Part shown: in pieces, positions 1 to 27,690 of the stretch | Numbering within the stretch: the first letter of the stretch is position 1 | How the letters are laid out: each line of letters begins with the position of its first letter | Virus record (IMG/VR): IMGVR_UViG_3300044267_004151 | Location: 1 to 27,690 of that record | Reading direction: 5' to 3' (one strand) | Source: a virus | Lineage: Duplodnaviria > Caudoviricetes | Length of the DNA stretch: 27,690 nucleotides | Position numbers and translations under genes: made by a program | Notes under the pieces: generated by a model | Databases searched by the model: none | The model's input: only the letters and a program-made list of their open reading frames with translations | Told to the model about the DNA's origin: nothing

Positions 1-27
1 CATAGATCATTCCAAGAGCACCAGTAA
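1..27 (+). repeat. 27-bp direct terminal repeat, left copy (circular assembly overlap)
   Basis: CATAGATCATTCCAAGAGCACCAGTAA at 1-27 is identical to 27663-27689. Confidence 0.95.
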
Positions 28-679
28 CAACTGGGTTCTGTGCATCTCCACGATTTAATGCGTGAGAGAATGATGTAGATTGTAATAACAACGAATAATA
101 TGAAGGTGAGCAATATAAAAATAAGTCACCATCAGTAATATCAACATCAGAAGCAATCAAATCTGCTATTGCATTTTGTACCCCAGTTTCTGCTTGAGCA
201 ACAGTCAAAGCACCTGCACCAGTAGAGCCAGTATCCACAGTGTTTGTTGTTGTCATCAACTCAGTTAATACTGCGTCATTAAAATGTTTACCAATAGCAT
301 TACCCATTGAACGAGCAAATCCATCAAAAACATCAAATGAAGATTGAACTGCTACCATATCAGCAATTCTTTTACCAACAGCAGGCTGTTGATTGCAAGT
401 AATCAAACCCTCTGCATCTGTATCATTTGAAAATGTAACACCAGTATCAATCTCATTTCCACTATCAGTCTTTTGACCAGTATAGTTATTAGCAGTTTCT
501 GCATTTAATATTGGAACATTAATTTTCTCACCTTTCTGACCACCAGCAAGTGAGGAAAAATCCATAATGTTATTTCTTATTTCATATTGTCTTTCAGCAT
601 AACCAAGAACTGCTTCAGTCCAGAGTTCTTGAAGAAAACTGGTCTGCGTTTGGTTCTGAACAGTAGTATTATTAGCCAT
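1..679 (-). CDS. Major capsid protein (HK97 fold), N-terminal 226 codons; continues across the circular junction into 27662..27436 (about 301 aa total)
   Basis: Absent from the ORF track. ATG at 679 with AGAGGT RBS. Open frame MANNTTVQNQTQTSFLQELWTEAVLGY...GEKINVP...VTGALGMIY runs to base 1. ELW and G-x-x-I-x-V-P motifs are typical of phage capsid proteins. Directly follows the scaffold gene. Confidence 0.9.
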   Translation of the reverse strand, partial: MANNTTVQNQTQTSFLQELWTEAVLGYAERQYEIRNNIMDFSSLAGGQKGEKINVPILNAETANNYTGQKTDSGNEIDTGVTFSNDTDAEGLITCNQQPAVGKRIADMVAVQSSFDVFDGFARSMGNAIGKHFNDAVLTELMTTTNTVDTGSTGAGALTVAQAETGVQNAIADLIASDVDITDGDLFLYCSPSYYSLLLQSTSFSHALNRGDAQNPVVTGALGMIY

Positions 680-695
680 TTAAAATTACCTCTTT

Positions 696-1253
696 CTAAT
701 TTTTTTGCGATTTAATAAAATCAGACCACTTTTTTTGCCTTTGATGAGAACCCATTTCTTTTACTCCTTTCTTAAAGGAATTAATTGAAGGGTCTTCAAA
801 TTGTCTCGCACTTGGTTTAGTACTATCAACTGGAACTGATTTTTCTTTTATTGTAAGTCTTTGTGCTACCTTCTTTAATTGAGCAGTAGGTAGGTCACCA
901 AATTCCTCTTTATCTTCATCCGTCATTGTGGACAATATGTCCTCACGGATTGATGCCTTTAGAGATTGAAGTTCTTCATCTGATTGTTGCAACTTTTCTA
1001 TTTTAGAAGATTGTTCAGCAATAATCTCTTTATGCCTTCCTTCTTCTTCTAACTTTTTTTGTTTTCTAAGTCTTTCAGAATCTTGATATTCTTTCAATTT
1101 CGCTTCTGCATCTTGTGCCCTTTGTCTATACTTTTTGCTTTCTGCAATATACTTCGCATTCTCTGTGCGATTATCAGTTTCGGGCATTTCTGATAAAGTC
1201 TTTTCAGTACTATCCACGTCTGTTTCATTTACTGAATTTTGTTCTTCGGACAT
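696..1253 (-). CDS. Capsid scaffolding protein
   Basis: Highly charged coiled coil (ESKKYRQRAQDAEAKL...KKLEEEG), acidic N-terminus, immediately upstream of the capsid gene, AAGGAGG RBS. Confidence 0.8.
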   Translation of the reverse strand: MSEEQNSVNETDVDSTEKTLSEMPETDNRTENAKYIAESKKYRQRAQDAEAKLKEYQDSERLRKQKKLEEEGRHKEIIAEQSSKIEKLQQSDEELQSLKASIREDILSTMTDEDKEEFGDLPTAQLKKVAQRLTIKEKSVPVDSTKPSARQFEDPSINSFKKGVKEMGSHQRQKKWSDFIKSQKN

Positions 1254-1287
1254 CTGTCCTCCTTATTTAATTAATGATTACAGATGT

Positions 1288-1335
1288 ATTTTATTAAGGG
1301 TAGGGTATCAAATATTAGTTACTTATCGGTAACCT
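1288..1335 (-). promoter_or_regulatory. Putative activator-dependent late promoter, copy 1 (drives scaffold and capsid)
   Basis: 24-bp box at 1312-1335 is identical to 7824-7847 and contains the dyad GTTAC-N6-GTAAC. A TAAAAT -10 hexamer lies 18 nt downstream on the minus strand (1293-1288). Confidence 0.75.
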
Positions 1336-1369
1336 AAAATATTAAGAACTCTATTCGATTGTATGTTAT

Positions 1370-1573
1370 TTAATTTGTTGGATTGTTGTAGCAGTCGCGT
1401 ATTGCGTCATATAATATAAACATCCAATTGAATGAACCGGTAATGATATCATAAGTCCTAACTTGTCCAGTTCTTATATACTCCCTAGATTCTGCAGAAA
1501 AAAACCAACTATAAAGGCAAGCCATATATCCCACAAAATAGATTGCAACAAGACCAGATATAAAAACCTTCAT
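1370..1573 (-). CDS. Small membrane protein, function unknown
   Basis: Hydrophobic N-terminal helix; ATGA overlap with the upstream gene. Confidence 0.6.
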   Translation of the reverse strand: MKVFISGLVAIYFVGYMACLYSWFFSAESREYIRTGQVRTYDIITGSFNWMFILYDAIRDCYNNPTN

Positions 1574-2019
1574 ACCCTAAATGACATTCGTGTAGTCTTG
1601 TTCAGTCTTTTCATATTGGTTTTTAAATTAATACCAACTTGCTTATCAACAAGAGTTTCAACCTCTTTCGGTATTTCCTTATCATTAAATATGATTCTCC
1701 CAAGTTTCATATTATTAATTACCTTATTGAGATTTTCACCGGCTTGAAGCCATCCGACCCAAACACCCTTACCTCTCTGGACAACTGCTTGAAGGTCTGC
1801 CCACATTTCGCCAGTCAAAGTTAAATCAACTTTTGCAGTCTGCCTTGAAACTTGCCTTGGTATTTTTCCGGCTCCTTTTTTTTGTATATATTTTTTACTT
1901 TTATATTTCCCGAAAGGTTTTATCCCCTTGAATTTCTTTTGCCCTAATGTTCTTAATTTTTGGACAACCTCGTTTCCAAGTTTATACCAGAATGCGTTTG
2001 TTGGTAAGATGTTAGCCAT
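1570..2019 (-). CDS. Putative neck/tail-completion (virion morphogenesis) protein
   Basis: Basic protein with YxxKY..KK and VDLTLTGEM motifs, resembling Mu gpG/HK97 gp10-like proteins; follows the head morphogenesis gene. Confidence 0.55.
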   Translation of the reverse strand: MANILPTNAFWYKLGNEVVQKLRTLGQKKFKGIKPFGKYKSKKYIQKKGAGKIPRQVSRQTAKVDLTLTGEMWADLQAVVQRGKGVWVGWLQAGENLNKVINNMKLGRIIFNDKEIPKEVETLVDKQVGINLKTNMKRLNKTTRMSFRV

Positions 2020-2801
2020 TAATTTGCCTTATTTTCATATAGTTCTTGTAATGTATAAGGAAGGTATTTATCTCCCCTATCATCAATTAATTTATTTGCT
2101 TTCTTGCCTTCCCATAAATCCCTTGAAGATGATGTAACCGGTTCCCATTGATGCCTACAATTATATCCCCCACCATCTCTGAACGCACCGGGGAATTGCT
2201 TATCTATTTCCTTTATTGTTAATTGGCCTGCCTTTAATTGTTCTAGACATACATCCCTTGTCTTACCATCAGCCGGACCATAATAAAAGAATTTTTGCTC
2301 ATCCGGTGCAAAGTCTGCCTGCAATCTTATAACTGAGCGTCTAAATGTACTCATCGCAGTAGTTACAAGAGTTGTTAAATTTCCCCTACTTATATTTGGA
2401 AGATTAACGATAGAATTTACTATCATATCTCTTGTCATACCACCTACTAGACCTTGTATTACAGATGTCCTAACAGTATTACCGAGCATACCTGCATTCT
2501 GAAGAAATGTTGCTTGTTCAAAGTCTAATAATGATTCAAGCATATTTTCAGATATAGGTGCGTAATATGGAGTATCCTTGAGTAATGCTTGATATTTTGT
2601 AATTAAGTTTCCAACAGTACTCTGGTAACCCATTTCATTCAATATATATGTTTCCATATTAATATTGGACATAATAGAAAGAAACTCCTCTCTATCAAAT
2701 TGGTTGTGCATCTCTATAATAGATTCAGCCAACCTAACCATCATATTGTTTACTTCAGTTGCGTATTGGCTTGCAACTCTATCAATAGCATTGTAATCCA
2801 T
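2019..2801 (-). CDS. Head morphogenesis / minor capsid protein (SPP1 gp7 / Mu gpF-like)
   Basis: Follows the portal gene; YYGPADGKTRDVC and GGYNCRH motifs. Confidence 0.8.
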   Translation of the reverse strand: MDYNAIDRVASQYATEVNNMMVRLAESIIEMHNQFDREEFLSIMSNINMETYILNEMGYQSTVGNLITKYQALLKDTPYYAPISENMLESLLDFEQATFLQNAGMLGNTVRTSVIQGLVGGMTRDMIVNSIVNLPNISRGNLTTLVTTAMSTFRRSVIRLQADFAPDEQKFFYYGPADGKTRDVCLEQLKAGQLTIKEIDKQFPGAFRDGGGYNCRHQWEPVTSSSRDLWEGKKANKLIDDRGDKYLPYTLQELYENKAN

Positions 2802-4102
2802 TACTCACTCCTTAAAGCATCAAGAAGTGTTGAGCCGGCAGTCTTTGGCTTTCTTTCCTCTAAATAAGCAATCGCATCCTCTCTTGTCATATCTGGATTT
2901 CTTTCTTGTAATATATCAGCAAGGTCTTTAATACCCATTTCTAAATCATCCTTTTCTAATGCTCTTTTTTCTGTAGGTGTATATACTTCTTCCATTTCGC
3001 CAAAATCTACATTTTCTAATTCACCAATATCATAGTTCTTATGAAACTTGATTAACATCCTTTCCATTTCGTGTAATTCGTGTTCAAATGCTCTCCATCT
3101 AGAAATATCTTGCTTTCGCTTATCTCTTAATTCAACATTTCTAATTGCTAACGATATTCCAGAACTTGCTTGTTCGGATTCATCAACAAATGATGTTGAA
3201 AGATGGTAATTTTGTGCTAACATTTTATACATAGACCTAATAGAAGAATCTATACTTTGCGAAGTATCCGGAGGTGTCAATATTTCTAAAGATGAATCAA
3301 TTTCTATTCTAGTTATAATGTCCGGTGCTATTGCTAAATGATCATTCTGCATTTCACCTTTTGCAACCAAATACCCGAAAGATTGGAATTTTTGATTCTG
3401 ATGCTTTGTTGTCATTAAATCAATTATTTTTAAATGCCCTCTAATTAGGTCTTGTGAAGCAGTTGTATCCAGATAGAAGGTATCTGGTCTGCCATCACGA
3501 AATACGGGGATTAAAGGCATTTTTTCGTAGAAATTCAACCCTTCTGGATTGTATTCGTCAAACATTTTTTGATTACTATTAATTTTAAATTGAAATGCTT
3601 CTGAATCAGACCAATATTGCCAAGTTTCTTCACTGTCATCATATACACTTGACCTAGTAGCAAGAGGGAAAGAAAACGCAGTAGGCTTTAATGGATCATC
3701 ACCTTCAAATTCCGGCTCAAAATCATATATAATATCATACTCTACTCTATCATTCCTCCAACAAGGTTTAATTATAACAAGTTCCAAAAGATTGACAAGT
3801 CTTTCAAATCTTTGTAGGCGATGATTTTTATTTGGGTGTAAGTATTCTTCATACTTTGAACTTGCCACTGTTCTTTTTGGTGGTTCCATATAGCATAAGG
3901 AAATTCTATCTATAACTCTTTTAGTAATGTTACTTGAACAGGGTGTCATCTTATCAGACTTTGAACCAATGTATTCACCCATTACATATTCATCTGTATT
4001 GCCGTTATAATAATCCAATGCTTCCAACCTTTTTTGTAGCCATACTTCCTTTTCTTGTTGTTGTGCATCGTGTCTGCTTTTTAGTACGATTGATTTGCTC
4101 AT
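2801..4102 (-). CDS. Portal protein (SPP1 gp6-like)
   Basis: 433 aa directly after TerL; LDYYNG, NITKRVID and ASSGISL motifs. Confidence 0.88.
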   Translation of the reverse strand: MSKSIVLKSRHDAQQQEKEVWLQKRLEALDYYNGNTDEYVMGEYIGSKSDKMTPCSSNITKRVIDRISLCYMEPPKRTVASSKYEEYLHPNKNHRLQRFERLVNLLELVIIKPCWRNDRVEYDIIYDFEPEFEGDDPLKPTAFSFPLATRSSVYDDSEETWQYWSDSEAFQFKINSNQKMFDEYNPEGLNFYEKMPLIPVFRDGRPDTFYLDTTASQDLIRGHLKIIDLMTTKHQNQKFQSFGYLVAKGEMQNDHLAIAPDIITRIEIDSSLEILTPPDTSQSIDSSIRSMYKMLAQNYHLSTSFVDESEQASSGISLAIRNVELRDKRKQDISRWRAFEHELHEMERMLIKFHKNYDIGELENVDFGEMEEVYTPTEKRALEKDDLEMGIKDLADILQERNPDMTREDAIAYLEERKPKTAGSTLLDALRSE

Positions 4103-5355
4103 CTCGGTAATGCCCTCACATTATTTTTATGGATTCTTGATTTAAACATAGACCAAACGGAATATCCAAATCCGTCTGATGCGTGTGTTAATTCTTTGTT
4201 ACTCTTGTCTATATCTGCTCTCGTTCCTTCCCGATTTATAACTTGCTCAAAATCCTTAATTAATACCTTACATTTGGGATCAACTATTGTACTTCTAAGC
4301 ATTCTATTTGTTAAATTAACTCTTTCAATTACTGGTATTGCTCTCCTCTCTGCTCTTACATCAAAACCTTCATCTCTTAATATTTGGTGGTCTGACCTCC
4401 TAGAACTTGTAGACCTATTCCGACCAGCAGGGTCTGGTATACAGATATACTGATTGTTCGGATATCTTGATTTTATTTCTCTCGCCATTCTTTCTGTCAA
4501 GAGTTCCCCTTCCCCTGCGTGACGCAACACGACCTCGTCAATGACACGAATTTTGGGATCATTATTGTATTGTTGCCATAGTATTGATACACTAGGGGAA
4601 ACATTGAAGTCTTGTCCAATGACAATGGGTAATTCAGAATTATACTTATTTTTTTTGACATAATCTCTATTCCACATATAGTATGTTTGTTGTGAACCGA
4701 ATATATGACAGAACTCCCCATTTAAATATGCCTTCTGGAGTTGTTCATCATAATTCATTTTTAAACTTTCAATAAACTCTGAAGGCAACGACTTGTTATC
4801 CATTGTCCTTCCTTGGATTAATTCATACCCATCTTTGGGGTCTGATTTCCAAGTTTCATACACCCAACCAAAACCCTCCGGAGTGGTTGTTATGAATGCT
4901 TGTAAACTATTACCTTCCCTCAACCTTGATAACAACATAAACCAAGCACTGTTATCTTTAAGTAAATCTGCTTCATCTAATCCTCCGGCACTAAGATTCA
5001 AGCCTGCCCACCTTCTATTGTTTTCTGCTGACCTTAAAATTATATCAGCATACCCAAACTCTCCCTCTCCCCATCTTACAGTATACCTTAAATCAGAAGC
5101 AGTATAATCAAAATCCCAGTTTGCTTCCTCTAACATTTTTTCAAGTGTTGGTTGAAGCACATCCTTAATCATTGGGTAGGTTGGTTCTGCTAGTAATATC
5201 AACCCTCCCGGATTTAAACCACACTGACGCATACCCATTAGAACGAAAGCAGTAGTTTTCCCACTCCCATATCCGGCAACCAGAGCAGGATACTTCGCAT
5301 TTGATCTTATAAAAAGATTCTGATGCTTGTATACATTAAATCTCGTTGAGTTCAA
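4099..5355 (-). CDS. terL: Terminase large subunit
   Basis: Walker A AGYGSGKT, Walker B GLDEA, motif III TTTPEG, nuclease motifs GQDFN and HASDGFGY. Confidence 0.96.
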   Translation of the reverse strand: MNSTRFNVYKHQNLFIRSNAKYPALVAGYGSGKTTAFVLMGMRQCGLNPGGLILLAEPTYPMIKDVLQPTLEKMLEEANWDFDYTASDLRYTVRWGEGEFGYADIILRSAENNRRWAGLNLSAGGLDEADLLKDNSAWFMLLSRLREGNSLQAFITTTPEGFGWVYETWKSDPKDGYELIQGRTMDNKSLPSEFIESLKMNYDEQLQKAYLNGEFCHIFGSQQTYYMWNRDYVKKNKYNSELPIVIGQDFNVSPSVSILWQQYNNDPKIRVIDEVVLRHAGEGELLTERMAREIKSRYPNNQYICIPDPAGRNRSTSSRRSDHQILRDEGFDVRAERRAIPVIERVNLTNRMLRSTIVDPKCKVLIKDFEQVINREGTRADIDKSNKELTHASDGFGYSVWSMFKSRIHKNNVRALPR

Positions 5356-5659
5356 ATCCTATTGGTCGTTCTTTTGTAGTCGTTTCAATTTTCTGTGCCG
5401 GCCTACCTTCCATTCGGTCTGCAATAAACTGAACTGCCCACGACCTACCCTCTAATGCGTAAGAATATACCATTCTCATTACTACTTCAAGTTTTGGGAT
5501 TCCATCCTTTGTACCTTCTTCTTCCCCTATCTTTCTCAAGATATCTGGAATAGACTTAACTCCCTTCGGTCTACCCTTTCCTACTGAAGCAGTATTTCCG
5601 GCTACAAACCTTCCATTTGAACTCCGATTACTTCCGTTTTTAATCGGCTCTTTACTCAT
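5336..5659 (-). CDS. terS: Terminase small subunit (DUF5681-like); start likely at 5659 rather than 5722
   Basis: MSKEP...NGRFVAGN...GRPKG and DRMEGRP motifs; upstream of TerL. The ATG at 5659 overlaps the end of the TET gene. Confidence 0.75.
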   Translation of the reverse strand: MSKEPIKNGSNRSSNGRFVAGNTASVGKGRPKGVKSIPDILRKIGEEEGTKDGIPKLEVVMRMVYSYALEGRSWAVQFIADRMEGRPAQKIETTTKERPIGFELNEI

Positions 5660-6455
5660 ACTTTTCAAATCCTTTGACTGCATAAAATATATGCGTATTT
5701 CTAAACGACCTATCATCATCAAGATAAATTGGCGTAACTCCGTGTATATTCCTCCAAGCCGGATACACGCATAAGGAATTGTCAGACATTTCTATTGTAG
5801 CATTATAATCCGGTATATGTAAATGTCCACCTTTGGAGTTCAATCTTTTTGTAAAAATCATATTTAATGCACCCTTAATATTACCTCTATCAAGATGGAA
5901 GGGTGCTGATATATTATAATTTGATATACTTCCAGTAAATAAATTTGCAAACCTCCATTTACTCGGTACTTTATCTATTAATCTTTTTTGTTCTTTATAT
6001 GCTTCCGGCATTAATTTTTTAATAATTTTTTCACCTTCCAAGCAAGCCATTAACATACCTTTAATATAATTCTTAGACTTTGCTTCTTGATGAACTGCAC
6101 TCCGTCTTGGGAAAAATCTTTTCATATGGGGTTTTGCCATTATACTTCCCAATATTGTACTCATCTGAATTGTCTGTGTAGCCTTTGCTTGTTTTCTTGT
6201 CAATCCTTCTTTATACACTGCTGAGAATACATCGCTTCTTTCTAATAAAGATTTTGGAACATTTTTACTACGAAACTCTATATCTATCAAATCCAATAAC
6301 TTTCTTAATTTACCTTTTAAGTTTGTCTTATAAAATCCAATAATATTTCCATTTTCTGTAAAGTAAGTATCATCTACTATATTGGGTGTAAAATGTTCAC
6401 ACCGGTTTCCAACTTTGTATGGATGTTTAATATTTTTTAATTCAAGCGATTTCAT
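5652..6455 (-). CDS. TET/JBP-family 2OG-Fe(II) dioxygenase
   Basis: FTGSISNYN, HxD motif (PFHLDRGN), GG-x-L, HGVTP distal His and R-x5-Y (RNTHIFY) 2OG-binding strand; adjacent to a glycosyltransferase. Confidence 0.85.
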   Translation of the reverse strand: MKSLELKNIKHPYKVGNRCEHFTPNIVDDTYFTENGNIIGFYKTNLKGKLRKLLDLIDIEFRSKNVPKSLLERSDVFSAVYKEGLTRKQAKATQTIQMSTILGSIMAKPHMKRFFPRRSAVHQEAKSKNYIKGMLMACLEGEKIIKKLMPEAYKEQKRLIDKVPSKWRFANLFTGSISNYNISAPFHLDRGNIKGALNMIFTKRLNSKGGHLHIPDYNATIEMSDNSLCVYPAWRNIHGVTPIYLDDDRSFRNTHIFYAVKGFEKYE

Positions 6456-7194
6456 TTACTTTTTTATTATAATAATTTGCTATACCTTTTATATCAACCT
6501 TTGTGTCTATTCTTCCACTCTTTTTGATTAGCCTTGTGTATGGTCGCCATTCTTTATGTAGCCTTTCAGCATAGACTGCATCAGTTTTGTTTTTATATAA
6601 ATCAAACAATCCTCCCTTATTGCTACCAACATTTGGACATCTGAACCAATACTTATTAAACCTCATTACTCCGTGACCATTCTTAATTGTTTTTAATGTA
6701 AAATTTCTATCTGACTTTAATTTCCAGTCGCCAAAATCCCAAGAAATGTTTTCCAAGTCTAGCATTACACAACAATCAACGAATTTACTATTAATTGAAT
6801 ATCTATTTTTTTCACTCCAAGCAAACTGACAATAATTTATACCGTATAATTCAAATGGTAATTTCTGTGCTTTTAAATAAATATCCTCCCATATCTCAGC
6901 ACCAGTTGTTATGCTTTTCCCATCCTTAACTATTCCAAAGTTCTGTATATCATCATCTGAAATAATTACCCATTTATAATTGTTATTTTTTGACCAATCC
7001 ATTACATAATTTCTCATATATGATATGCCTTGATCATTTTTATCTATAGAAACTTTATTGGGAACCTCATATTCCTTATACTCTTGTGGCTCTATAAAAT
7101 GATGTACTGGGAACAGACCTTCAAACAATTTGTATGTTCTTGTTTTTTTTCTATTTTTTGTTCCTATACAGACAACTATATCACTACCGACCAT
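6442..7194 (-). CDS. TET-associated glycosyltransferase (TAGT / GREB1-like GT-A fold)
   Basis: I-x-T-K-x-R N-terminus, EPQEY..Y, G...RN, DDD metal-binding motif and GSNKGG; between the ParB-N and TET genes. Confidence 0.8.
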   Translation of the reverse strand: MVGSDIVVCIGTKNRKKTRTYKLFEGLFPVHHFIEPQEYKEYEVPNKVSIDKNDQGISYMRNYVMDWSKNNNYKWVIISDDDIQNFGIVKDGKSITTGAEIWEDIYLKAQKLPFELYGINYCQFAWSEKNRYSINSKFVDCCVMLDLENISWDFGDWKLKSDRNFTLKTIKNGHGVMRFNKYWFRCPNVGSNKGGLFDLYKNKTDAVYAERLHKEWRPYTRLIKKSGRIDTKVDIKGIANYYNKKVNEIA

Positions 7195-7195
7195 A

Positions 7196-7789
7196 CTACT
7201 TCTCTTTCAATTTCTGTTTGAAAAATCTTAAAACCTCTCCACCCATATATCCAAATTTACCATTCAAAGTTTGATATATTTTTACTGCTTCATCATAATC
7301 TTCTAAATTAAATTCTACTAATATTGATTTTCTTGTTCCTTTACGCATATCATCCACCAAATCAGAAACATCATCATCTTCTAAAATTGAATAATCAACC
7401 TCATCAAACAATCCAAGTAATGACTTTTCACTAAATCCCCAGTCTTTTAATTCTTCTACATCAAAAAAATTAGCAAGAGCATCATAATCCCATCCACCAA
7501 TATTCTTATTTAACCTTATATTCAATTCCTTTTCTTTCTCAAGGGATAGATTGACCTCCACACAAGGAACAGTATCTATCTTTAAATCTTTTGCAACTAA
7601 CAATCTTTGATGACCACCCACAACAATATTCTTTCTTTCATTGTGGCGATTCACTATTATTGGATCAACAAGCCCGAATCGCTTAATGCTATCCTTTAAT
7701 TGATTGTACTGTTCTTTCGTTAATTGCCTTGGATTGTATTCGGCAGATATTAGGTCTTTTGATAGATATTGGACTATTTTCATATTCAT
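7196..7789 (-). CDS. ParB/Srx N-terminal-domain protein
   Basis: YNPRQ, LKDSIKRFGLVDPIIVN, GGHQR, LNIRLNK and G.WD motifs. Confidence 0.9.
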   Translation of the reverse strand: MNMKIVQYLSKDLISAEYNPRQLTKEQYNQLKDSIKRFGLVDPIIVNRHNERKNIVVGGHQRLLVAKDLKIDTVPCVEVNLSLEKEKELNIRLNKNIGGWDYDALANFFDVEELKDWGFSEKSLLGLFDEVDYSILEDDDVSDLVDDMRKGTRKSILVEFNLEDYDEAVKIYQTLNGKFGYMGGEVLRFFKQKLKEK

Positions 7790-7799
7790 TTTTACCTCG

Positions 7800-7847
7800 A
7801 TTTTAATAATATGTTGTGTTATGATATTAGTTACTTATCGGTAACCT
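7800..7847 (-). promoter_or_regulatory. Putative activator-dependent late promoter, copy 2 (drives the ParB-GT-TET-terminase operon)
   Basis: Same 24-bp box (7824-7847) with TAAAAT 18 nt downstream (7805-7800). Confidence 0.75.
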
Positions 7848-7854
7848 TACTTAA

Positions 7855-8142
7855 TTACTTAAATTTTGTATTATCAGATATTATTCTTTTGATATTTTCT
7901 TCTGATGTGTGATACAATTCTTTTATATACTTTATTTTTTTATCAAATGAAAACTCAAAGTGTGACATAGTCTCCCACCTAATTCTAATATCCATATTTC
8001 TTATACTTATTTCATCATTATTCCTAAAGGGGTAATACGGCACTTGTGGAATTAATCTAATATTTTTTAATTCCATTTCATTCTCAACATCCAACCAGAC
8101 CAGAGGTTTCTTTATTTTTTTCATAGATTCTCCATTATTCAA
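7855..8142 (-). CDS. Putative Mor/C-like late transcription activator
   Basis: IRNMDIR...IKELYHTSEENIKRII resembles the Mor-family C-terminal HTH. It is the last early gene and abuts the dyad box. Confidence 0.55.
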   Translation of the reverse strand: MNNGESMKKIKKPLVWLDVENEMELKNIRLIPQVPYYPFRNNDEISIRNMDIRIRWETMSHFEFSFDKKIKYIKELYHTSEENIKRIISDNTKFK

Positions 8143-8186
8143 TTATCCTCTCCCCAGTTTTTCTATTTACTCTAACGAACATTAAT

Positions 8187-8381
8187 TCAATCTCCCAATC
8201 GTCTGAAAACACTCGTTCCGGCTTCTCTTTTAAGACATTTTTTACACAAAGCCTTCCAGATTTTTGGAACATACTCTGGAACATACTGAGGACTTTGGTA
8301 AGTATATTGGTCCGTTTTTTTTGTTGAGCCACATTGTTCACAAGTAAATAATTTTTTCCCTAAATTTTTTGCAAAGTTCAC
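8187..8381 (-). CDS. Small zinc-ribbon protein
   Basis: CEQC and CKKC pairs; GTG start. Confidence 0.65.
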   Translation of the reverse strand: MNFAKNLGKKLFTCEQCGSTKKTDQYTYQSPQYVPEYVPKIWKALCKKCLKREAGTSVFRRLGD

Positions 8382-8528
8382 CTTCTATCACCGATAGATT
8401 TTAATTGTGTCCGTCATATATCCTTGGTGAGTTTATGCTCTCTCTTTTCTTCTAACAGTTCAGCCAATAAACTCTCAGCAATACTTTGCCAATCTATAAT
8501 ACTTTTATTCCTAATACAACTACCTTTA

Positions 8529-9041
8529 CTATTCTACTTCTTTAAGATATTTTTGAATAGACTTAGTATAAATCAGTACCTTTTCTAAATTACTATTACG
8601 CTTAACACTTTTCAATTGCCCAGTATTTATTCTTCTTTTTATTGTTGATGCAGACAATCCTAAAACCATTGTTGCTTCAGTTAGTGTTAATACCGGTCTA
8701 TCCATTAAATTATATCCAAAACTTCGGCTAGTGCTACTTCGTTTCTCGGTATCCATAGTCCGACCACTAGCCTTGCTTCCCGAATTACGGGATTCCAAAT
8801 CTAACCGATCACAGAGTTCAGCAAATTTTCTATCAAGCCGTATACATACATACTCAAGTTTGTCAACTTTATTAGAATATTCACCAATTATTGCTTCCCA
8901 TTCAACTGGAGGATGCGAGTTTTCTTCTAAATTTATAATTCTTTCTTTTAATGTTTCTATTTCCTTTACTCTTTCTTTTAATATTTCTAAAATCTTAGGG
9001 ATGTAGGTAAATACTTCTTCAACTTGACTAAATGTTGCCAT
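8529..9041 (-). CDS. Coiled-coil protein with a C-terminal HTH_17 (excisionase/MerR-like) DNA-binding domain
   Basis: LTLTEATMVLGLSASTIKRRINTGQLKS. Confidence 0.75.
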   Translation of the reverse strand: MATFSQVEEVFTYIPKILEILKERVKEIETLKERIINLEENSHPPVEWEAIIGEYSNKVDKLEYVCIRLDRKFAELCDRLDLESRNSGSKASGRTMDTEKRSSTSRSFGYNLMDRPVLTLTEATMVLGLSASTIKRRINTGQLKSVKRNSNLEKVLIYTKSIQKYLKEVE

Positions 9042-11251: not shown

Positions 11252-11256
11252 TTTTA

Positions 11257-11282: not shown

Positions 11283-11298
11283 ATTTGCTATATGGTTA

Positions 11299-20446: not shown

Positions 20447-20837
20447 TTTCTGCCTTTCTTATGTGATTTATTTCTTCTTTTATAATCATCCAAGCATCTA
20501 TGAAATCAGCCGGTGTTTCATTAAATGAAGGATATGGAGGTGTATTACTTTCAGAGCAGTACAAATATTGCTTAATCATAATCTGCGAATCACTATCAAT
20601 TAAATCTTCAGAGTTTGACCAGTAAAAATGTTCAAGGTAAAGTGCTTCACCTATCTTATCAAATCCCTCCTCTACACACTCATCTACAAACTCTACCATA
20701 TAATTATACACATCCTCAATCTTTTTAAAAACTCTCGTTCCCTTCGATACCTTTGCCTTGTAAGGAAAATTATATCTAGACTTTTGAACACCCTTATAAC
20801 TAAGCCATACATTCAGTCTTAAAAGTGATTCTTTTAT
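20433..20837 (-). CDS. Tail assembly chaperone gpT-like extension (expressed by -1 frameshift)
   Basis: The -1 frame is open from the A9 run (20845-20837) through the 20433..20711 ORF. Confidence 0.8.
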   Translation of the reverse strand: MKESLLRLNVWLSYKGVQKSRYNFPYKAKVSKGTRVFKKIEDVYNYMVEFVDECVEEGFDKIGEALYLEHFYWSNSEDLIDSDSQIMIKQYLYCSESNTPPYPSFNETPADFIDAWMIIKEEINHIRKAENERK

Positions 20838-21073
20838 TTTTTTTTATTCACATTATCCAAACAAGCACCGGCAATTTCCACTATATCATCAGCAGAAAGT
20901 TCATTGATTTGTTCATCGTTTAATGTGGTGCACTTTTTAATAACATCAACCCACATAGTAAAAGTGACTGAATCCATATTTTGTAAAATTCTGTCATTTA
21001 AATCACATCGGTCTTTTAGATTAAGTTGCACAACCTCATAATTCTTCTTACCAACTTTAATTATGTTACTCAT
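20834..21073 (-). CDS. Tail assembly chaperone (gpG-like)
   Basis: Between the tail tube and tape measure genes; ends AAT AAA AAA AAA TAA. Confidence 0.8.
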   Translation of the reverse strand: MSNIIKVGKKNYEVVQLNLKDRCDLNDRILQNMDSVTFTMWVDVIKKCTTLNDEQINELSADDIVEIAGACLDNVNKKK

Positions 21074-21091
21074 ACTCTCCTCTTTTATTAA

Positions 21092-22117
21092 TTACATTGT
21101 TAATCTTAATATTTTTGATGAAGAACCCAACACTCTAGCACCCTTTACTGTTACTGAATTTCTTAATTCTGGATTACCAGTATCAACAGAATGTTCAGTT
21201 GTCCTTCCGTAAACATATACATTCCAAAGACTATTATTCCCAACTGCCATAACATTGTTTCCAGAATAATTTTTAGCACCAGTATTGTCAAAATTTTCAT
21301 CTCTTTTATAGGTTACATTACCTATTATTTCCCAAGCACCATTCATTATATACCCATCCGGGTCTTTTGAACCTCCGTGCCATCCCACTCTTTCAATATT
21401 CCTCTGAACTGAAACAGAATAAGAGTATGGGTGAATTTCATATCCAGCACTACTAGATGATAGGTATGTTCCGGCACTTGTCCAGTCTCTGAAGTTAGGT
21501 GCAGTTCCCCAAGTACTTGTATATGTATTATCACCGTCAGTCATATCATCTGTATAAGAGGTATCATACCCAGTTACAAATGTCATTTCCACTATCGGTA
21601 AACCACCCTCAGAATCTATTGCGTGATTTAATACCATTGAAGTAGCAACACACCCTTTGTATACAATATCTTTTTTTACAGAAGCACTTGCAGTTTCGTA
21701 TCCACCACCACCAATATGAATACAAGCAGATTTACCATACCCTGCCGTAGCCATTACTGCATTATGTTCAAACTTTGGTGCTGAATACTGCCCAGTTATT
21801 TGATTGTCGCCATCATTATCCTCAAATAAGTATCCACACATCATATCTAATACGACTGGAGTGCATATCGCTGAAAATGATATTTCATACATCTCACTCG
21901 AAGAATCATAAGCAGTTGCATCTATTTCAATGCTCTTTTGCCCTTGAAGAACTGGAGATTCTGCGACTGATGCCTTTATGTCTACTATTGTCGGAGGACT
22001 AATTAATGGTATTTCATAAGCAGTTGCCGAACCTATGGTTGAACTGCCCATATTAGTTTCCTCAAAAATACCTAATCTTAAATCCTTTGAACTCTTTAAT
22101 TGTGTACCTACTGCCAT
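21092..22117 (-). CDS. Tail tube / major tail protein, paralog 2
   Basis: Position upstream of the chaperone; E...G N-terminus, YKGC strand; homologous to 22133..23368. Confidence 0.7.
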   Translation of the reverse strand: MAVGTQLKSSKDLRLGIFEETNMGSSTIGSATAYEIPLISPPTIVDIKASVAESPVLQGQKSIEIDATAYDSSSEMYEISFSAICTPVVLDMMCGYLFEDNDGDNQITGQYSAPKFEHNAVMATAGYGKSACIHIGGGGYETASASVKKDIVYKGCVATSMVLNHAIDSEGGLPIVEMTFVTGYDTSYTDDMTDGDNTYTSTWGTAPNFRDWTSAGTYLSSSSAGYEIHPYSYSVSVQRNIERVGWHGGSKDPDGYIMNGAWEIIGNVTYKRDENFDNTGAKNYSGNNVMAVGNNSLWNVYVYGRTTEHSVDTGNPELRNSVTVKGARVLGSSSKILRLTM

Positions 22118-22132
22118 CTAACTATCTCCTTA

Positions 22133-23368
22133 TTAAAAGTCTATGTTTACTATGTTATTAGAATCTGAATGTAAAGTCCAAGTTTCAGAATTATATGTCT
22201 CTGCAACATAATTAACGGCAGTTGCGAACCTATCATTTTCAATATGCGTTACAATATGGTCTGCATTGTATGTTCCTTCAGAAGCACCTGCTATTGTAAC
22301 CTTCTGACCTACACCTAATCCGTGACCACTTGAAGTAAACCAAGTATCTGAATTGTCGCCTGCTGGACCATTTGCAAATACAGTGACGGCACCGGTTGCT
22401 CTATGATTTCCAGTACCAGTATATGAATATGTTGCCCTCATATCTGCACTTCCAGTATCTACACTGCAATCATTCATCTTTCCGTTCAATCTAACATCAT
22501 AACCAGTTCCGGACACTTTAAATCCAGATATTTTATTATTACGCAAATAATCATCAAAATTTAATTGATTTGCATCGTGCTTGATTGTTATAGAGCCTTC
22601 AACTGAATGGTTGCCCACCTGCAAATATCCAAGTGGGTTGTTACTACCATCATATCCAACTCTCTGTATATCCCTTGAAACATTTAATGTATATCCATAC
22701 GCTCTACAATCATAATTAGAACTGCCTGCCGTTTCACCAATCCAGCGACCATTAACACAATCAAGGTCTACAAAATGTTGAGCCACCTCACTATAATGAG
22801 CCGTAGGACTTCCTGCTGAAGCAATATTAGATAAAGCAACCGGATAAGCAGTTACCCAAGTCAATGTCATTATTGGGAAGCCACCATTAGAATCTATCGA
22901 ATGAGCAACTTCTACACTTTTAAGGATACATCCTTTAAATAATAAATCATTATTTGGTGTAGCAAAGTCATATCCTGCACCCTTAACCAGTATCACTTGA
23001 GATGAATTATTTGCAACAGTAGCACCGGCATCCAAATTTGGCTGAGTGTAGGCACTCGAACTTAGGTAAACTTGCCCACCAAGTAAACCTTTACCAGAAT
23101 ATGTCATAGCATCAGCAGTAGCCAAAACTTGAACACTAATTTCCCATAAAGCATTGTCCAACCTTTGCTTTGATTGGTTATGGTCAAGAAAATATTTTCC
23201 AGTCCTTTCAGAACCTACATCTAAAGGCACATTCCCAATATTAATAGAAGGTGGTGCTATTGCATTTAGTAAATGGTATGTACTACTTGTTCCAGCACCT
23301 ACAGTTGCTTCATCGCCTATTACAAATTCAATTTCTTGCGATATTTTAAAATTCTTACTTATTGCCAT
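22133..23368 (-). CDS. Tail tube / major tail protein, paralog 1, with an extra C-terminal beta domain
   Basis: FKGC...HSIDSNGG motif; C-terminal GHGLGVGQKVTIAG module. Confidence 0.7.
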   Translation of the reverse strand: MAISKNFKISQEIEFVIGDEATVGAGTSSTYHLLNAIAPPSINIGNVPLDVGSERTGKYFLDHNQSKQRLDNALWEISVQVLATADAMTYSGKGLLGGQVYLSSSAYTQPNLDAGATVANNSSQVILVKGAGYDFATPNNDLLFKGCILKSVEVAHSIDSNGGFPIMTLTWVTAYPVALSNIASAGSPTAHYSEVAQHFVDLDCVNGRWIGETAGSSNYDCRAYGYTLNVSRDIQRVGYDGSNNPLGYLQVGNHSVEGSITIKHDANQLNFDDYLRNNKISGFKVSGTGYDVRLNGKMNDCSVDTGSADMRATYSYTGTGNHRATGAVTVFANGPAGDNSDTWFTSSGHGLGVGQKVTIAGASEGTYNADHIVTHIENDRFATAVNYVAETYNSETWTLHSDSNNIVNIDF

Positions 23369-23727
23369 TACCCATCTCCTTTACTTGCTTTGATTTTTTC
23401 TAATAAATCTGATTTTGTATCTCCAGAATTAAAGGCAATAGAATTATCAATCATATAATCTTTGAGTTCACTTTTTGTCCAATTATCTGAAGGGTCTGAA
23501 CTCTTTACCTCTTCAGAATTGGAATTAACAATCCCTTCATCACTGGCACTTCCATCAACACTTTCAAGGTGTTCTGACAAATCTTTGCCCAGCAATCTTG
23601 GACTTGTTTCAATCTCTACTGCACTACCTTCCATTAACATATTATGCTTCCACTCGCAAATCCCAAAAAAAGATTCATCATTAGACAAACCCTTGTAGGA
23701 TTCTTTTGCTTTAAATTTACCTCTCAT
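23368..23727 (-). CDS. HeH/LEM (Rho-N/SAP-like) domain protein
   Basis: C-terminal WTKSELKDYM...I.F....TKSDLLEKIK. Confidence 0.7.
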   Translation of the reverse strand: MRGKFKAKESYKGLSNDESFFGICEWKHNMLMEGSAVEIETSPRLLGKDLSEHLESVDGSASDEGIVNSNSEEVKSSDPSDNWTKSELKDYMIDNSIAFNSGDTKSDLLEKIKASKGDG

Positions 23728-23736
23728 ACTTTCTCC

Positions 23737-24156
23737 TTATAATGAATCGTGATTTTCAAGAGTTACACTCAACTGAGTTACACTCAAGTTTTCAATATCT
23801 GTTTCAATGTCATACTCTATTGAAGGTATCTGCAAGTCAAACCAATACCCAGATATATTTCTATTACTATTTAATAATTTTTTCAACCTATCGCATCTAT
23901 TCCTCACATATTCAGTCCTATGTATAGAATCCTTATCAAGATAGTAATGGACTATTTCAATATTAAATATTCTTCTTTCAAATACGCTTGTTGTTAATAC
24001 ATCCTCTGAACTTGATAAATGTATTCTAATACTTTCGTCTGTTGGTTGTGCAACATAATCACTTGATATATAAATTGAAGGAAACTCATCATTAATTACC
24101 TTTAAAAGTTTTTCTTCTATCTTAGGAAATGCCGTCTTTGTATATGCTATCGCCAT
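23737..24156 (-). CDS. Putative tail terminator / tail completion protein
   Basis: Size (139 aa), position upstream of the tube genes and alpha/beta pattern. Confidence 0.6.
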   Translation of the reverse strand: MAIAYTKTAFPKIEEKLLKVINDEFPSIYISSDYVAQPTDESIRIHLSSSEDVLTTSVFERRIFNIEIVHYYLDKDSIHRTEYVRNRCDRLKKLLNSNRNISGYWFDLQIPSIEYDIETDIENLSVTQLSVTLENHDSL

Positions 24157-25121
24157 AATTGAATACTCTTTGATTTAGCATTGGTAGGCTCTACATTCTG
24201 AACCTCAACAAACCAAGTATCTGAAAATGTCATTGAATCCCCAGCAAATCTAAAATTCAAGCCACCAGATAATCTCTGTAATTGCCCATTTAATGTAATT
24301 GTTTCTGATTGACCAAATAATCTGTCAGACTTCTTTGTATAGATTCTAACTTGTGCTTCGTGTAATGCACCGGCTACTACGCATACAATTTTTATCTTAT
24401 CATATCCGTGACCAGACCATCTTCCAGATAATTGAACCAAATCCATTCCACCAGACACACTCCCTCTAATGATTTTACCCTTATTAGATATGTTCCGTGA
24501 TTCATATAATAATTTGACATCACCGGAATTAATCTTATCAACTATACCAGTTCTATCTAGGTTTGTAACCTTTGAATAGATATAATCTGCCTTTTCATAT
24601 TCTTCTTCAGAATTTAACAATGCTACATAAGCAAGTAAACATTCTGCCTTCTTTATGATATAGTCATACTCTGCATTGTCATCTTGTGAGGAACCATCAT
24701 TATAAACCATCGCCTTAGGAATCGGTGTAACATGAGCCGTGATTAATGAATTTAATTCTTGACTAGCATCGCACAACAAGGTATCTATAAACGCATCCTT
24801 ATCTAAACCACTTTCAATTCTTGAATCATCATTTGGATCATCCGTGTGGTATAGTGCAACATAATCTTCACCAGTATTGTAAAACCACTTTTGATTGCCC
24901 GTCACATCCCCGAGAGTTGCTACCTTTGTACCCTCAATACCATTTATGAATATCTGAAAGTCAGCACTCTTACTAAGACCAGTACTATAATGTAGCCAAA
25001 GATTAGCAGAGCCACCGGATATCCATTTTTTTAGATGAGTTCTGTTTAAATACTTGGTATAATCTTTACAAATTTTATAAAAGAAACTTTGGTCGCTATA
25101 TTTAAAATCACTTACTGCCAT
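24147..25121 (-). CDS. Putative head-tail adaptor with accessory domains
   Basis: Central helical segment (IDTLLCDASQELNSLI...PIP) resembles gp6/gp36-type connectors; first structural gene after the lysis block. Confidence 0.5.
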   Translation of the reverse strand: MAVSDFKYSDQSFFYKICKDYTKYLNRTHLKKWISGGSANLWLHYSTGLSKSADFQIFINGIEGTKVATLGDVTGNQKWFYNTGEDYVALYHTDDPNDDSRIESGLDKDAFIDTLLCDASQELNSLITAHVTPIPKAMVYNDGSSQDDNAEYDYIIKKAECLLAYVALLNSEEEYEKADYIYSKVTNLDRTGIVDKINSGDVKLLYESRNISNKGKIIRGSVSGGMDLVQLSGRWSGHGYDKIKIVCVVAGALHEAQVRIYTKKSDRLFGQSETITLNGQLQRLSGGLNFRFAGDSMTFSDTWFVEVQNVEPTNAKSKSIQLWR

Positions 25122-25289
25122 TTACATCTCCTTAATCATCCCCTTGACCTGCTTCCACACTTTGTCATCTGTTTCCGATTTTGTTGCTTGAACATAATTA
25201 TCGCCTACCTTGATAAGTATATCTTTCAGATTTATGCTTCTAGCCATCTTTTTTATGATTTTTTCTAATATTTTCAATTTAAAACCCAT
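25122..25289 (-). CDS. 55-aa amphipathic protein (not in ORF track)
   Basis: AAGGA RBS; MGFKLKILEKIIKKM...TKSETDDKVW. Confidence 0.65.
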   Translation of the reverse strand: MGFKLKILEKIIKKMARSINLKDILIKVGDNYVQATKSETDDKVWKQVKGMIKEM

Positions 25290-25298
25290 TATCTATCC

Positions 25299-25370
25299 TT
25301 ATTTCCTTTTCTTTTTTTTCTTTTTAGGACTTGTAACCTTTTTTCCGTAAGTTCCTTTACCTTTAGGCAT
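25299..25370 (-). CDS. 23-aa basic micropeptide (not in ORF track)
   Basis: MPKGKGTYGKKVTSPKKKKKKRK fills the gap between its neighbours. Confidence 0.6.
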   Translation of the reverse strand: MPKGKGTYGKKVTSPKKKKKKRK

Positions 25371-25371
25371 A

Positions 25372-25515
25372 TTACTTGCCCACCAATTTAAAGATTGATT
25401 TTTTTATTGATGTCCATATAAGGTCATCCCATTCAGTTGGTGATAATGCAACCAATTTATCAATCGCCATTATTCCTATTAAAAAGTATTCCCAATTATT
25501 TATTACAAAATCCAT
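25372..25515 (-). CDS. 47-aa holin-like membrane protein (not in ORF track)
   Basis: AAGGAG RBS; MDFVINNWEYFLIGIMAIDKLVALSPTEWDD... Confidence 0.65.
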   Translation of the reverse strand: MDFVINNWEYFLIGIMAIDKLVALSPTEWDDLIWTSIKKSIFKLVGK

Positions 25516-25656
25516 TTACTTCTCCTTATTGTATAGTGAGAATAGAGTTTTTACCTTGTCCTTCAAGACATCTATGTCTACTCTCATTCTCGTTAGTATT
25601 GTTACAAGCAACACAAAGGCTGTAAGTTGTTCCCAGTAATCTGTTATAAAATTCAT
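25516..25656 (-). CDS. 46-aa membrane / coiled-coil protein (not in ORF track)
   Basis: AGAGGT RBS; MNFITDYWEQLTAFVLLVTILTRMRVDIDVLKDKVK... Confidence 0.65.
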   Translation of the reverse strand: MNFITDYWEQLTAFVLLVTILTRMRVDIDVLKDKVKTLFSLYNKEK

Positions 25657-25789
25657 TATGTACCTCTATATGTTTATGTTCTACCTCACAGTAGGATGGA
25701 CATCTATATCCGGATTTATATTCAATAAAATTCACAATCATATTAATTGCTATATTTATCAAAATTATCCATTTATCTGTTGCCCCCAT
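25526..25789 (-). CDS. Small protein with a hydrophobic N-terminus and CPSYC-x3-H-x-H motif; 3' half overlaps the next gene
   Basis: Fills 25657-25765; boundaries uncertain. Confidence 0.4.
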   Translation of the reverse strand: MGATDKWIILINIAINMIVNFIEYKSGYRCPSYCEVEHKHIEVHNEFYNRLLGTTYSLCVACNNTNENESRHRCLEGQGKNSILTIQ

Positions 25790-26532
25790 ACCGATGTCTT
25801 TCCATTAATTATCTCTACAACTTCAACCTTGAAATTCCCATCTTTCCAAAAATCAATTATCGCAAATGCGTGACCCCAGTTATGCAACCTACCAGACAAC
25901 CATTCATTATCCTCCGATTCCATAGACTTTAAACAACCCAAACTCCAAGCACCAATAGAATTGTCAATTCTTGTAATTGTATGTCGTTGGATGTCGTGAG
26001 TATGCCCATACATTATAGAGGTTCCATAACTTGATAGATGCTTCTTTGCGTGATGCAGGCAGACATAAGCACCGTGAATGAAGGCAAGTTTCCCTATCTT
26101 TAATGGTTTATTATGAGAAAGAACCTTGTATCCTCTTTTTTCCCACCTACAAGCACTATCAAATGAATATCCTTTCAAGTAAGGGTAGGCTTCTTTGAAC
26201 TGATTTAACCAATGGTCGTGATTCCCAGTTAATACATACCTTTCCTTACACCCTACCCAGTTAAGACTTCTATCTATTTCATCTATTCCAGCATTAACTC
26301 GTTGTATTTCCTCATCAATAATTGGCAATAAATATTCCAATGGTGGCTTCTTTTTTCTTCTCCAATTCCAATGGCTTACAGATTCCCACTCACCTACATC
26401 CCCAAGATTAATGAAGATGTCCGGCTTCACTATACCTATCGCTTGTTTTACACAAGATGTAGCATTTCTATCCTCTAATGGATAATGCTGATCTGGAATT
26501 ACAACTGCCCTGCGATGTCCTTTAATTTTCAA
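25765..26532 (-). CDS. Calcineurin-like metallophosphoesterase
   Basis: DxH (PDQH), GD, GNHD, HG and GHTH motifs. Confidence 0.92.
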   Translation of the reverse strand: MKIKGHRRAVVIPDQHYPLEDRNATSCVKQAIGIVKPDIFINLGDVGEWESVSHWNWRRKKKPPLEYLLPIIDEEIQRVNAGIDEIDRSLNWVGCKERYVLTGNHDHWLNQFKEAYPYLKGYSFDSACRWEKRGYKVLSHNKPLKIGKLAFIHGAYVCLHHAKKHLSSYGTSIMYGHTHDIQRHTITRIDNSIGAWSLGCLKSMESEDNEWLSGRLHNWGHAFAIIDFWKDGNFKVEVVEIINGKTSVWGQQING

Positions 26533-26538
26533 AAAGCA

Positions 26539-26781
26539 CTAATTCTTATTAAAAAAATAACCAAATAGGGAGGTAAACATAATAGCAAAAACAGAGCCAA
26601 CACCCTTAACCATAGAAATTGCATTCTCTGCCTTACCGATTCTATCATTCTGCTTGGACAAGTGTCTTTCTTGTGCATCTGTTTTTTCCTTAATATGATG
26701 TATGTCGCTTGTTATCCTTGTAAGTGCTAAAGTAACCCATTCTCGATGTTTTTGTGCTGACTTATAATTATCTGCCATCAA
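26539..26781 (-). CDS. Coiled-coil plus C-terminal TM protein (XhlA/holin-like)
   Basis: L.KQN.RI.K.E followed by a hydrophobic helix; next to the endolysin. Confidence 0.6.
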   Translation of the reverse strand: MMADNYKSAQKHREWVTLALTRITSDIHHIKEKTDAQERHLSKQNDRIGKAENAISMVKGVGSVFAIMFTSLFGYFFNKN

Positions 26782-27158
26782 TACCTCAACTCAAAATGAA
26801 CAAGATCATCAAAACTATTATCGTAAAGATTGTGATCATTATTCCAATCTCCACCCCAAACAATAGGAATCCCCAAATGATATGCAATACCTTTAATAAT
26901 TCCTGCGACATAAATAAAATTTTCCCTATCTTCCCAATTAATTGGATATGGTGCTAAGTCCACTGCCAATCCTTCTATATGTTTAGAATCGAGAGTTTTG
27001 GTTTTGCCCTCTTTTTTCAATTCCTTCTGTCTTTCAAGTGAACGCTTGCCCTCAATAAGACTAATATCCACATACTTGATTACCTCTGAAAGAAGTTCTT
27101 GCAAATCTTCATTAAGTTCATCCAAAACTCTCTTTGATTTCTTTCCGAATTTCGGCAT
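26778..27158 (-). CDS. Endolysin, peptidase M15 (L-Ala-D-Glu peptidase-like)
   Basis: EG.RS..RQ, SKH..G.AVD, WGGDW and D..HFEL motifs. Confidence 0.93.
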   Translation of the reverse strand: MPKFGKKSKRVLDELNEDLQELLSEVIKYVDISLIEGKRSLERQKELKKEGKTKTLDSKHIEGLAVDLAPYPINWEDRENFIYVAGIIKGIAYHLGIPIVWGGDWNNDHNLYDNSFDDLVHFELRY

Positions 27159-27162
27159 CTTA

Positions 27163-27378
27163 TTACTTGCCTTTTTTAGGTATACTTTTCTTTCCGGCAG
27201 GTGCTATTGTGCCACCTTTCTTAGCAGATTTTTTACCTTTTTGACCACCACCAGCACCACTACCAGCACCACTGCCAGAATAATACTTTGTAAATGCTTT
27301 GCTACTTATCCTTGAAACACTACCGGATGATCTTCTTCCACCCAATTTCCAACTTCTCACCTTTCCAACTTTTTTCAT
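27163..27378 (-). CDS. Lys/Gly/Ser-rich basic protein
   Basis: AAGGAG RBS; 71 aa with no acidic residues. Confidence 0.7.
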   Translation of the reverse strand: MKKVGKVRSWKLGGRRSSGSVSRISSKAFTKYYSGSGAGSGAGGGQKGKKSAKKGGTIAPAGKKSIPKKGK

Positions 27379-27396
27379 ATTTCTCCTTAATTTGAA

Positions 27397-27424
27397 TGGG
27401 GTGGATATATTTCAACCCACCCCA
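27397..27424 (-). terminator. Stem-loop after the capsid gene (partial terminator or mRNA stabiliser)
   Basis: TGGGGTGG...CCACCCCA inverted repeat just after the capsid stop codon; weak U tract. Confidence 0.65.
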
Positions 27425-27435
27425 GAATATAACAA

Positions 27436-27662
27436 TTAGTCAGTTATTACACAAGCAAGGTCGTTCACTAACAATGAAACGCCATAACAAGAACTTGCTA
27501 CTAAATCAGTAGAAAGATATGCAACATTTTCTTGTGCTTTTACATTTGGCTCTATTGAGAATGCACAACCCATAGCATTACGATGATACAATACACCAAT
27601 TTTATTAGCATCTGTACCAGTCGCTTCTAATGCACCTGCACTATTAGCATATACTTTCGCAC
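27436..27662 (-). CDS. Major capsid protein, C-terminal part
   Basis: In frame with 1..679 via the terminal overlap (GMIY|GAKVY). G-x-I-Y-G-x-x-V, YHRNAMG and YGV motifs are typical of capsid C-termini. Confidence 0.9.
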
Positions 27663-27689
27663 CATAGATCATTCCAAGAGCACCAGTAA
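27663..27689 (+). repeat. 27-bp direct terminal repeat, right copy
   Basis: Identical to 1-27. The following base differs (C at 28, T at 27690). Confidence 0.95.
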
Positions 27690-27690
27690 T

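Follow-up and report, generated by a model that had tools for sequence, protein, structure and literature searches.

The window analyzed here, a stretch of 27,690 bases with a guanine-cytosine (GC) content of 33.9% on which all positions are counted, comes from an IMG/VR virus record (IMGVR_UViG_3300044267_004151) and is a 27.7-kb tailed marine phage in which the tetranucleotide CCGG, the subject of this report, occurs about threefold more often than base composition predicts. Its 47 annotated open reading frames (ORFs) lie on the minus strand and include genes for capsid, terminase, tape measure, endolysin, ERF, and replication initiator proteins. The genome is probably complete with a circular map, because its ends overlap by 27 bases and the major capsid gene continues over the junction; IMG/VR classes the record as linear and 86% complete. 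We found the phage, whole or in part, in 10 runs, all of them seawater metagenomes, two of which may be its source. Upstream of the terminase lies a cluster encoding a ParB protein, a TET-associated glycosyltransferase (TAGT), and a TET/JBP dioxygenase (Table 1), the last with catalytic residues (H187-x-D189, H238, and R252) that are invariant across 30 homologs. No methyltransferase was found by Pfam and PHROG searches of the 47 ORFs, by a six-frame search confined to PF00145 and PF01555, with other families outside it, or by tblastn with three short C5-methyltransferase (C5-MT) homologs.

Table 1. Sites and genes in the phage genome discussed in the text.
Feature	Position	Strand	Remarks
CCGG sites, n=63	1437..27326	none	Every one within ORFs; random spacing
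Other GC-only palindromes, four surviving	CGCG 1396; GGCC 2225 and 5400; GCGC 14698 (range 1396..14701)		
CCTG[AGT]/[ACT]CAGG sites, only two	3938 and 11459 (range 3938..11463)		70 expected
ParB-N protein, stand-alone, 197 aa	7196..7789	-	PHROG 'DNA methyltransferase' match confined to the ParB portion of the profile, positions 31-178 of 633
TAGT glycosyltransferase	6442..7194	-	PF20691, above cut-off
TET/JBP 5-methylpyrimidine dioxygenase	5652..6455	-	PF12851, E 2e-8, 34.1 bits (cut-off 34.9)
Small terminase, probable	5336..5722	-	DUF5681 match below cut-off; role suggested by position
Large terminase	4099..5355	-	Served as family marker
End repeat, 27 bases	27663..27689	none	Copy of 1-27; in the major capsid gene, which crosses the join

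A sequence-only reading had put CCGG at about 60 copies against roughly 20 expected, and had noticed about two GGCC, one GCGC, and one CGCG. These counts held up: the recount gave 63 CCGG, including all seven coordinates quoted in that reading, base composition predicts 20.0, and the other palindromes number exactly 2, 1, and 1. A maximal Markov model raises the expectation to 34.2 (z 7.0). The 63 sites fall into the three ORF frames as 34, 26, and 3, and neither even spacing nor regional clustering was found along the genome (coefficient of variation 1.05, P 0.76; excess of 2.8- to 4-fold in each of four genome blocks). Chance or miscounting as the source of the excess was ruled out by the recount together with a synonymous shuffle. 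Two other candidates also failed, namely a single longer iterated word (the commonest 8-mers hold 4-5 of the 126 half-sites) and CCGG kept only where a neighboring thymine shields it (T occurs within 1-3 bases at the null frequency). Among the flanking positions, -1 alone departs from the null (G up, C down, p 0.002).

The excess stands in a genome from which many other short words have been purged, and this purge is wider than the GC-only palindromes noticed earlier. Our nulls swap synonymous codons and preserve both protein and codon usage, and against such a shuffle AGCT (0 vs. 70), CATG (1 vs. 56), ACGT (1 vs. 34), and CCGC (0 vs. 34) are nearly gone; in all, 39 minimal words of 4-6 bases stand at or below 15% of expectation, a depletion beyond codon and protein constraints of the kind expected of restriction-site avoidance. 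CCTG/CAGG totals 38 on both strands, 36 of these as CCTGC/GCAGG and 2 as CCTG[AGT], and CCTGC is at its normal level (35 vs. 37) while CCTG[AGT] is near zero. A search for gapped or bipartite banned words as concealed drivers yielded 10 weak candidates and no word with a zero count. Near-total loss of palindromic and asymmetric short words is shared with the double-stranded DNA phages described in the available text of Rusinov et al. 2018 (PMC6286503); compared with those, the phage stands apart by its unusually many minimal words, by word sets that differ between sisters, and by the offsetting abundance of one palindrome that is still permitted. Word bans in these relatives are all-or-none, and even closely related sisters (e.g. 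L050 and L299, in the terminase family L010-L085, L250-L329) differ in which bans they show; this switching may record host changes. The region of the ParB-TAGT-TET/JBP cluster is itself free of rare GC palindromes and CCTG[AGT] sites.

Imposing these bans on the shuffle raises the expected number of CCGG. An unconstrained codon shuffle gives 23.9, a ban on CCTG[AGT] gives 33.0 ± 4.2, capping 42 words gives 37.2, and a ‘hard’ null covering all near-absent words, picked in-script, gives 38.4 ± 4.6 (maximum 49); adding weakly avoided words (‘hard + soft’), a step that is partly circular, gives 46.0 ± 4.3 (maximum 59; 43-48 with shorter chains). The expectation thus climbs from 24 to 38-46 under bans, which account for about 15-22 of the 39 CCGG in excess of the free shuffle (about 40-55%). 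As to the circularity, the soft step gained 3.4 sites in a synthetic genome built to prefer CCGG genuinely and 7.6 in the real genome (one replicate). The suggestion of the sequence-only reading that CCGG is the synonymous escape from forbidden CCTG/CAGG contexts is therefore right in part: banning CCTG[AGT] does lift the expectation, from 24 to 33, and yet the excess persists under that ban (33.0 vs. 63). Escape at equilibrium, taken alone, would leave no excess under a constrained null, and one remains under each of them (63 vs. 33.0, 38.4, and 46.0). CAAG is also in excess (287 vs. 218 under the hard null) and by z is as strong as CCGG; CAAG/CTTG is near the top of the over-represented words in two relatives, L362 and L367, too.

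Relatives show CCGG rising and falling against its competing spellings. We compared 164 non-redundant loci, reduced to 103 informative ones of which 46 permit CCGG; the pooled counts exclude distant bacterial prophages (L091-L169), redundant loci, and any locus that is shorter than 4 kb or has a CCGG expectation below 4. Among the 46 loci, CCGG reached at least 2x expectation in 4 of 5 CCTG-banned loci and in 3 of the remaining 41 (Fisher p 0.001), and the CCGG ratio fell as the (CCTG+CCAG) ratio rose (Spearman rho -0.45, p 0.002), such that the excess tracks the loss of competing spellings in the pooled loci. The reverse is seen in G001, where CCGG (0 observed/7 expected) and CCAG (4/109) are banned and CCTG swells (291/184). 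In L014, which is the sister of the phage by terminase (SH-aLRT 99, quick tree) and is known from a 4.6-kb fragment, CCTG (1/14) and CCAG (0/12) are both depleted, CCGG stands at 11/5, and CCG is used in 8 of 9 Pro-GA pairs. A search of the viral collection for a longer L014 contig found none.

What remains above the constrained nulls, 1.4-1.6x, is not special in size, and matches the overshoot of top words in relatives: measured against that hard null, the leading permitted word stands at 1.5-1.8x in 6 of 8 other phages (L259, G041, L367, L327, L250, and G016), at 1.71x for CCGG itself in L362, and at 1.29x in G044. By codon pair, observed vs. expected CCGG is 14 vs. 3.9 for Ala-Gly, 16 vs. 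9.0 for Pro-Asp/Glu, 8 vs. 4.0 for Pro-Ala, 8 vs. 4.2 for Ser-Gly, 8 vs. 5.9 for Pro-Val, and 3 vs. 6.5 for Thr-Gly. CCG-G is used in 34 of 56 cases against a baseline of 31% (Gly/Val third-base; p 8e-6), and NCC-GG in 26 of 104 against 18% (p 0.07). Uniform selection for CCGG should lift all classes, and the absence of an excess at Thr-Gly, where ACT outnumbers ACC by 40 to 3 in this genome, counts against it. The residue sits mainly in Pro-G pairs, which would fit an earlier, wider ban on CCTG and CCAG like that of L014. Contigs from 4 runs, covering 1-14000, showed 33 variant places, a small number to which other organisms contribute; 10 substitutions clustered at 13819-13879 recur on a single contig in 3 of the 4 runs and may represent a variant or another phage.

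We consider it probable that the CCGG excess is a by-product of restriction-site purging, a permitted spelling left over once its alternatives had been removed. Nearly all copies of some 39 short words are gone from the phage, probably through restriction of these words by the host, and with CCTG[AGT]/CAGG and neighboring words banned, CCGG would be left open for Pro-G and Ser/Thr/Ala-Gly pairs; such a host would be rich in restriction systems, none of them cutting CCGG. An earlier ban on both CCTG and CCAG would have forced Pro-G pairs onto CCG-G, and a later release of CCAG, from an L014-like ancestor, would have left a frame-biased relic as the remaining 1.4-1.6x, to which weak avoidance of other CpG words may add. 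Several points weigh against this account. The 63 sites exceed the maximum of every null, the most demanding of which is the partly circular one, and host restriction is read from word depletion. Within the see-saw set the loci are phylogenetically non-independent, the correlation loses significance in TET-less loci alone (rho -0.28, p 0.20, n 23), TET is present in three of the four CCTG-banned loci at or above 2x, and L411, which is TET-less and CCTG-banned, has CCGG at just 1.44x. The ancestral state is guessed from the single L014 fragment. Finally, G016 has 132 CCGG vs. 90 expected with no ban on CCTG or CCAG, and a second cause must therefore exist in this phage family.

The main rival, which G016 seems to show, is a host-derived DNA-level drive toward CCGG, acting on top of the spill-over from the purge. 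An orphan CCGG methyltransferase may slow the decay of sites, and repair of the very-short-patch type may turn CTGG/CCAG into CCGG. The residue above every null favors such a drive, as does G016, which lacks both TET and a ban and, in either frame, uses CCGG in preference to CTGG (Thr-Gly ACC 21 vs. ACT 3; Pro-GA CCG 35 vs. CCA 6), and a short C5-methyltransferase-like gene is common to the CCGG-rich L362 and L367. That gene is, however, missing from the phage itself, and its family also occurs in phages with zero CCGG; the Thr-Gly codons of the phage (ACT over ACC) run the opposite way to those of G016; and CTGG shows no general depletion (ACTGG 69 vs. 57, TCTGG 47 vs. 47, GCTGG 16 vs. 24), a test that is blunt because the null fixes codon usage. 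Helicobacter pylori offers a parallel, since in the accessible parts of the reports on it (PMC4687349, PMC10423294) CCGG is over-represented without explanation in a genome rich in restriction-modification (R-M) systems; the likeness to the phage lies in CCGG as the over-represented palindrome of an R-M-shaped genome, and the difference in that H. pylori itself has CCGG R-M genes, whereas here the genome is that of a phage in which no methyltransferase was found. We regard a host drive as unlikely, and note that our favored account, left-over spelling after a purge, suggests a testable explanation for the so far unexplained abundance of CCGG in genomes that, like that of H. pylori, are rich in R-M systems.

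The sequence-only reading had also proposed that CCGG is positively selected as the target of the TET/glycosyltransferase pathway, for which enrichment should co-vary with the cluster. No such co-variation appeared in the loci compared. Across TET-homolog loci, a redundant set with many short members, CCGG lies below 0.25x expectation in 62 of 80 and at or above 2x in 4, and in the similarly redundant and often short loci with TET, glycosyltransferase, and ParB matches it lies below 0.25x in 12 of 15. In the pooled set, which de-replication and filtering took from 226 to 136 to 84 loci and in which ‘TET-less’ means that no TET match lies within the locus sequence at hand, CCGG is banned in 17 of 30 TET loci and in 31 of 54 TET-less loci, and where it is permitted the median ratio is the same (1.21 with TET vs. 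1.23 TET-less, p 0.45). G001, which carries the closest TET among those fetched (62% identical) together with glycosyltransferase and ParB, has no CCGG in ~10,900 codons, and the cultured Prochlorococcus phage MED4-184 has none in 20.8 kb vs. 14 expected. In a syntenic pair, L362, with the glycosyltransferase and TET genes, stands at 2.97x, and L367, in which the two genes are missing between ParB and the next gene shared with L362, at 2.76x (its record is 55% complete); the excess in G016 likewise comes without TET (record 88% complete). The proposal was thus not borne out, as most TET carriers lack CCGG and a TET-less relative is equally enriched. That reading had set unmodified CCGG together with equal enrichment in TET-less relatives against its own proposal, and the enrichment half of this pair is what L367 and L362 present. 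On these comparisons, CCGG is likely not the target of the TET cluster.

A more specific form of the proposal is that the phage cluster oxidizes and glycosylates host-made 5-methylcytosine (5mC) at CCGG and that the sites are selected for it. The residue above the nulls is in its favor, as are the presence of TET in three of the four CCTG-banned loci richest in CCGG and the oxidation of 5mC in vitro by two representative T-dioxygenases, as described in the portion of O'Toole et al. 2026 (PMC13229309) drawn on here. On the other side stand the rarity of CCGG in most TET-homolog loci, its absence from G001 and MED4-184, the equal medians, and the enrichment of L367 without glycosyltransferase and TET. 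In addition, according to the same portion, the ParB-linked 5-methylpyrimidine dioxygenases (5mYOXs) without a methyltransferase tested so far oxidize thymine to 5-hydroxymethyluracil (5hmU), and CCGG contains no T; 5mC-oxidizing phage TETs, in the available text of Burke et al. 2021 (PMC8256090), prefer GpC and have their own methyltransferase alongside. We therefore hold this explanation to be very improbable, and give just as little credence to the further step that such host-made 5mC, converted by a ParB-activated dioxygenase and the glycosyltransferase, is a packaging or protective mark, with the residual 1.4-1.6x as selection for it. More generally, when a phage under heavy restriction over-represents a palindrome, the excess largely mirrors the purge, which warns against reading it as a modification target.

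The dioxygenase could instead have left a mutational footprint, in which its target T in CCTG miscodes to G such that CCTG erodes and CCGG builds up. Oxidized thymine miscodes, and the CCGG excess is largest at Pro-G; CCTG bans accompany CCGG excess in three TET carriers (this phage, L190/L362, and L192). The preference of 5mYOX176 for NTG, given in the excerpted text of PMC13229309, points the same way. Against the footprint, CCTG is in excess in G001 despite its having the closest TET fetched, CCTG is banned in the TET-less loci L014, L380, L396, and L409, and the sparing of CCTGC alongside the near-total loss of CCTG[AGT] looks like selection against a site. We think it scarcely credible that miscoding produced the excess.

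Judged by its genes, the ParB-TAGT-TET/JBP cluster is likely a thymine-modifying system unconnected with CCGG. It is likened, from genes alone, to the clade C1 5mYOXs of the available part of PMC13229309, with which it shares a stand-alone ParB adjacent to a 5mYOX near the terminase, no C5-MT found, and intact HxD...H...R residues; its partner is a TAGT glycosyltransferase, whereas in that part of the source the genes chiefly associated with this subclass are those for GATase, P-loop kinase, and AADT. A TET/JBP gene with a glycosyltransferase near packaging genes is also common to the GpC-specific C5-MT/TET/glycosyltransferase clusters described in the text at hand of PMC8256090; those differ in their target, GpC rather than CCGG, and in the cognate C5-MT that marks clade A/B clusters, of which our searches of this genome found none. 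T-containing words (AGCT, CATG, ACGT, GAATTC, and others) are purged in spite of the probable thymine-modifying cluster, which does not seem to shield them, and in TET-bearing relatives, as in this phage, T-containing sites are purged no less strongly than in phages lacking TET. Coliphages with global hydroxymethylation, by contrast, avoid few sites (2.4% vs. 55.8%, in the available text of PMC6286503), and since T-sites here are purged equally with and without TET, the ParB-glycosyltransferase-5mYOX mark is likely sparse or targeted rather than a general anti-restriction shield. This bears on a question that PMC13229309, in the part available, leaves open. In MED4-184 (L442 8656-12443), ParB and TET homologs precede the terminase and are annotated as ‘DNA methylase’ and ‘queuine tRNA-ribosyltransferase’, and this cultured phage is a ready system for testing the ParB-TET cluster.

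No close cultured phage was found (best terminase identity 34%), and the 80 best GTDB loci included no prophage that is close (one 69% match on a 9-kb contig, the others at or below 35%). Two terminase homologs carry metagenome-assembled genome labels, but these point to differing taxa and were not accepted as evidence of a host. A literature search, with most subscription journals outside its reach, turned up nothing on this phage family or on an excess of CCGG in phages. Among relatives, one lineage (L022-L026, G012, and G013 (L332-L335)) has almost no CpG (ratio 0.00-0.01); G012 and G013 carry a short (~210 aa) C5-methyltransferase-like gene with homologs also in the normal-CpG phages L190 and L003. 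Full-length C5-methyltransferases occur in G022, G033 (two), and G034, and N6/N4 methyltransferase matches in 9 of the 31 relative records searched. In the phage itself, a 179-aa ORF (9041-9580, minus strand) resembles a PD-(D/E)XK nuclease by eye, with Pfam and PHROG silent at E 0.001 and atlas matches to hypothetical phage proteins only, and two stretches of 400-450 bases, 14766-15218 and 25122-25525, carry no annotated gene.

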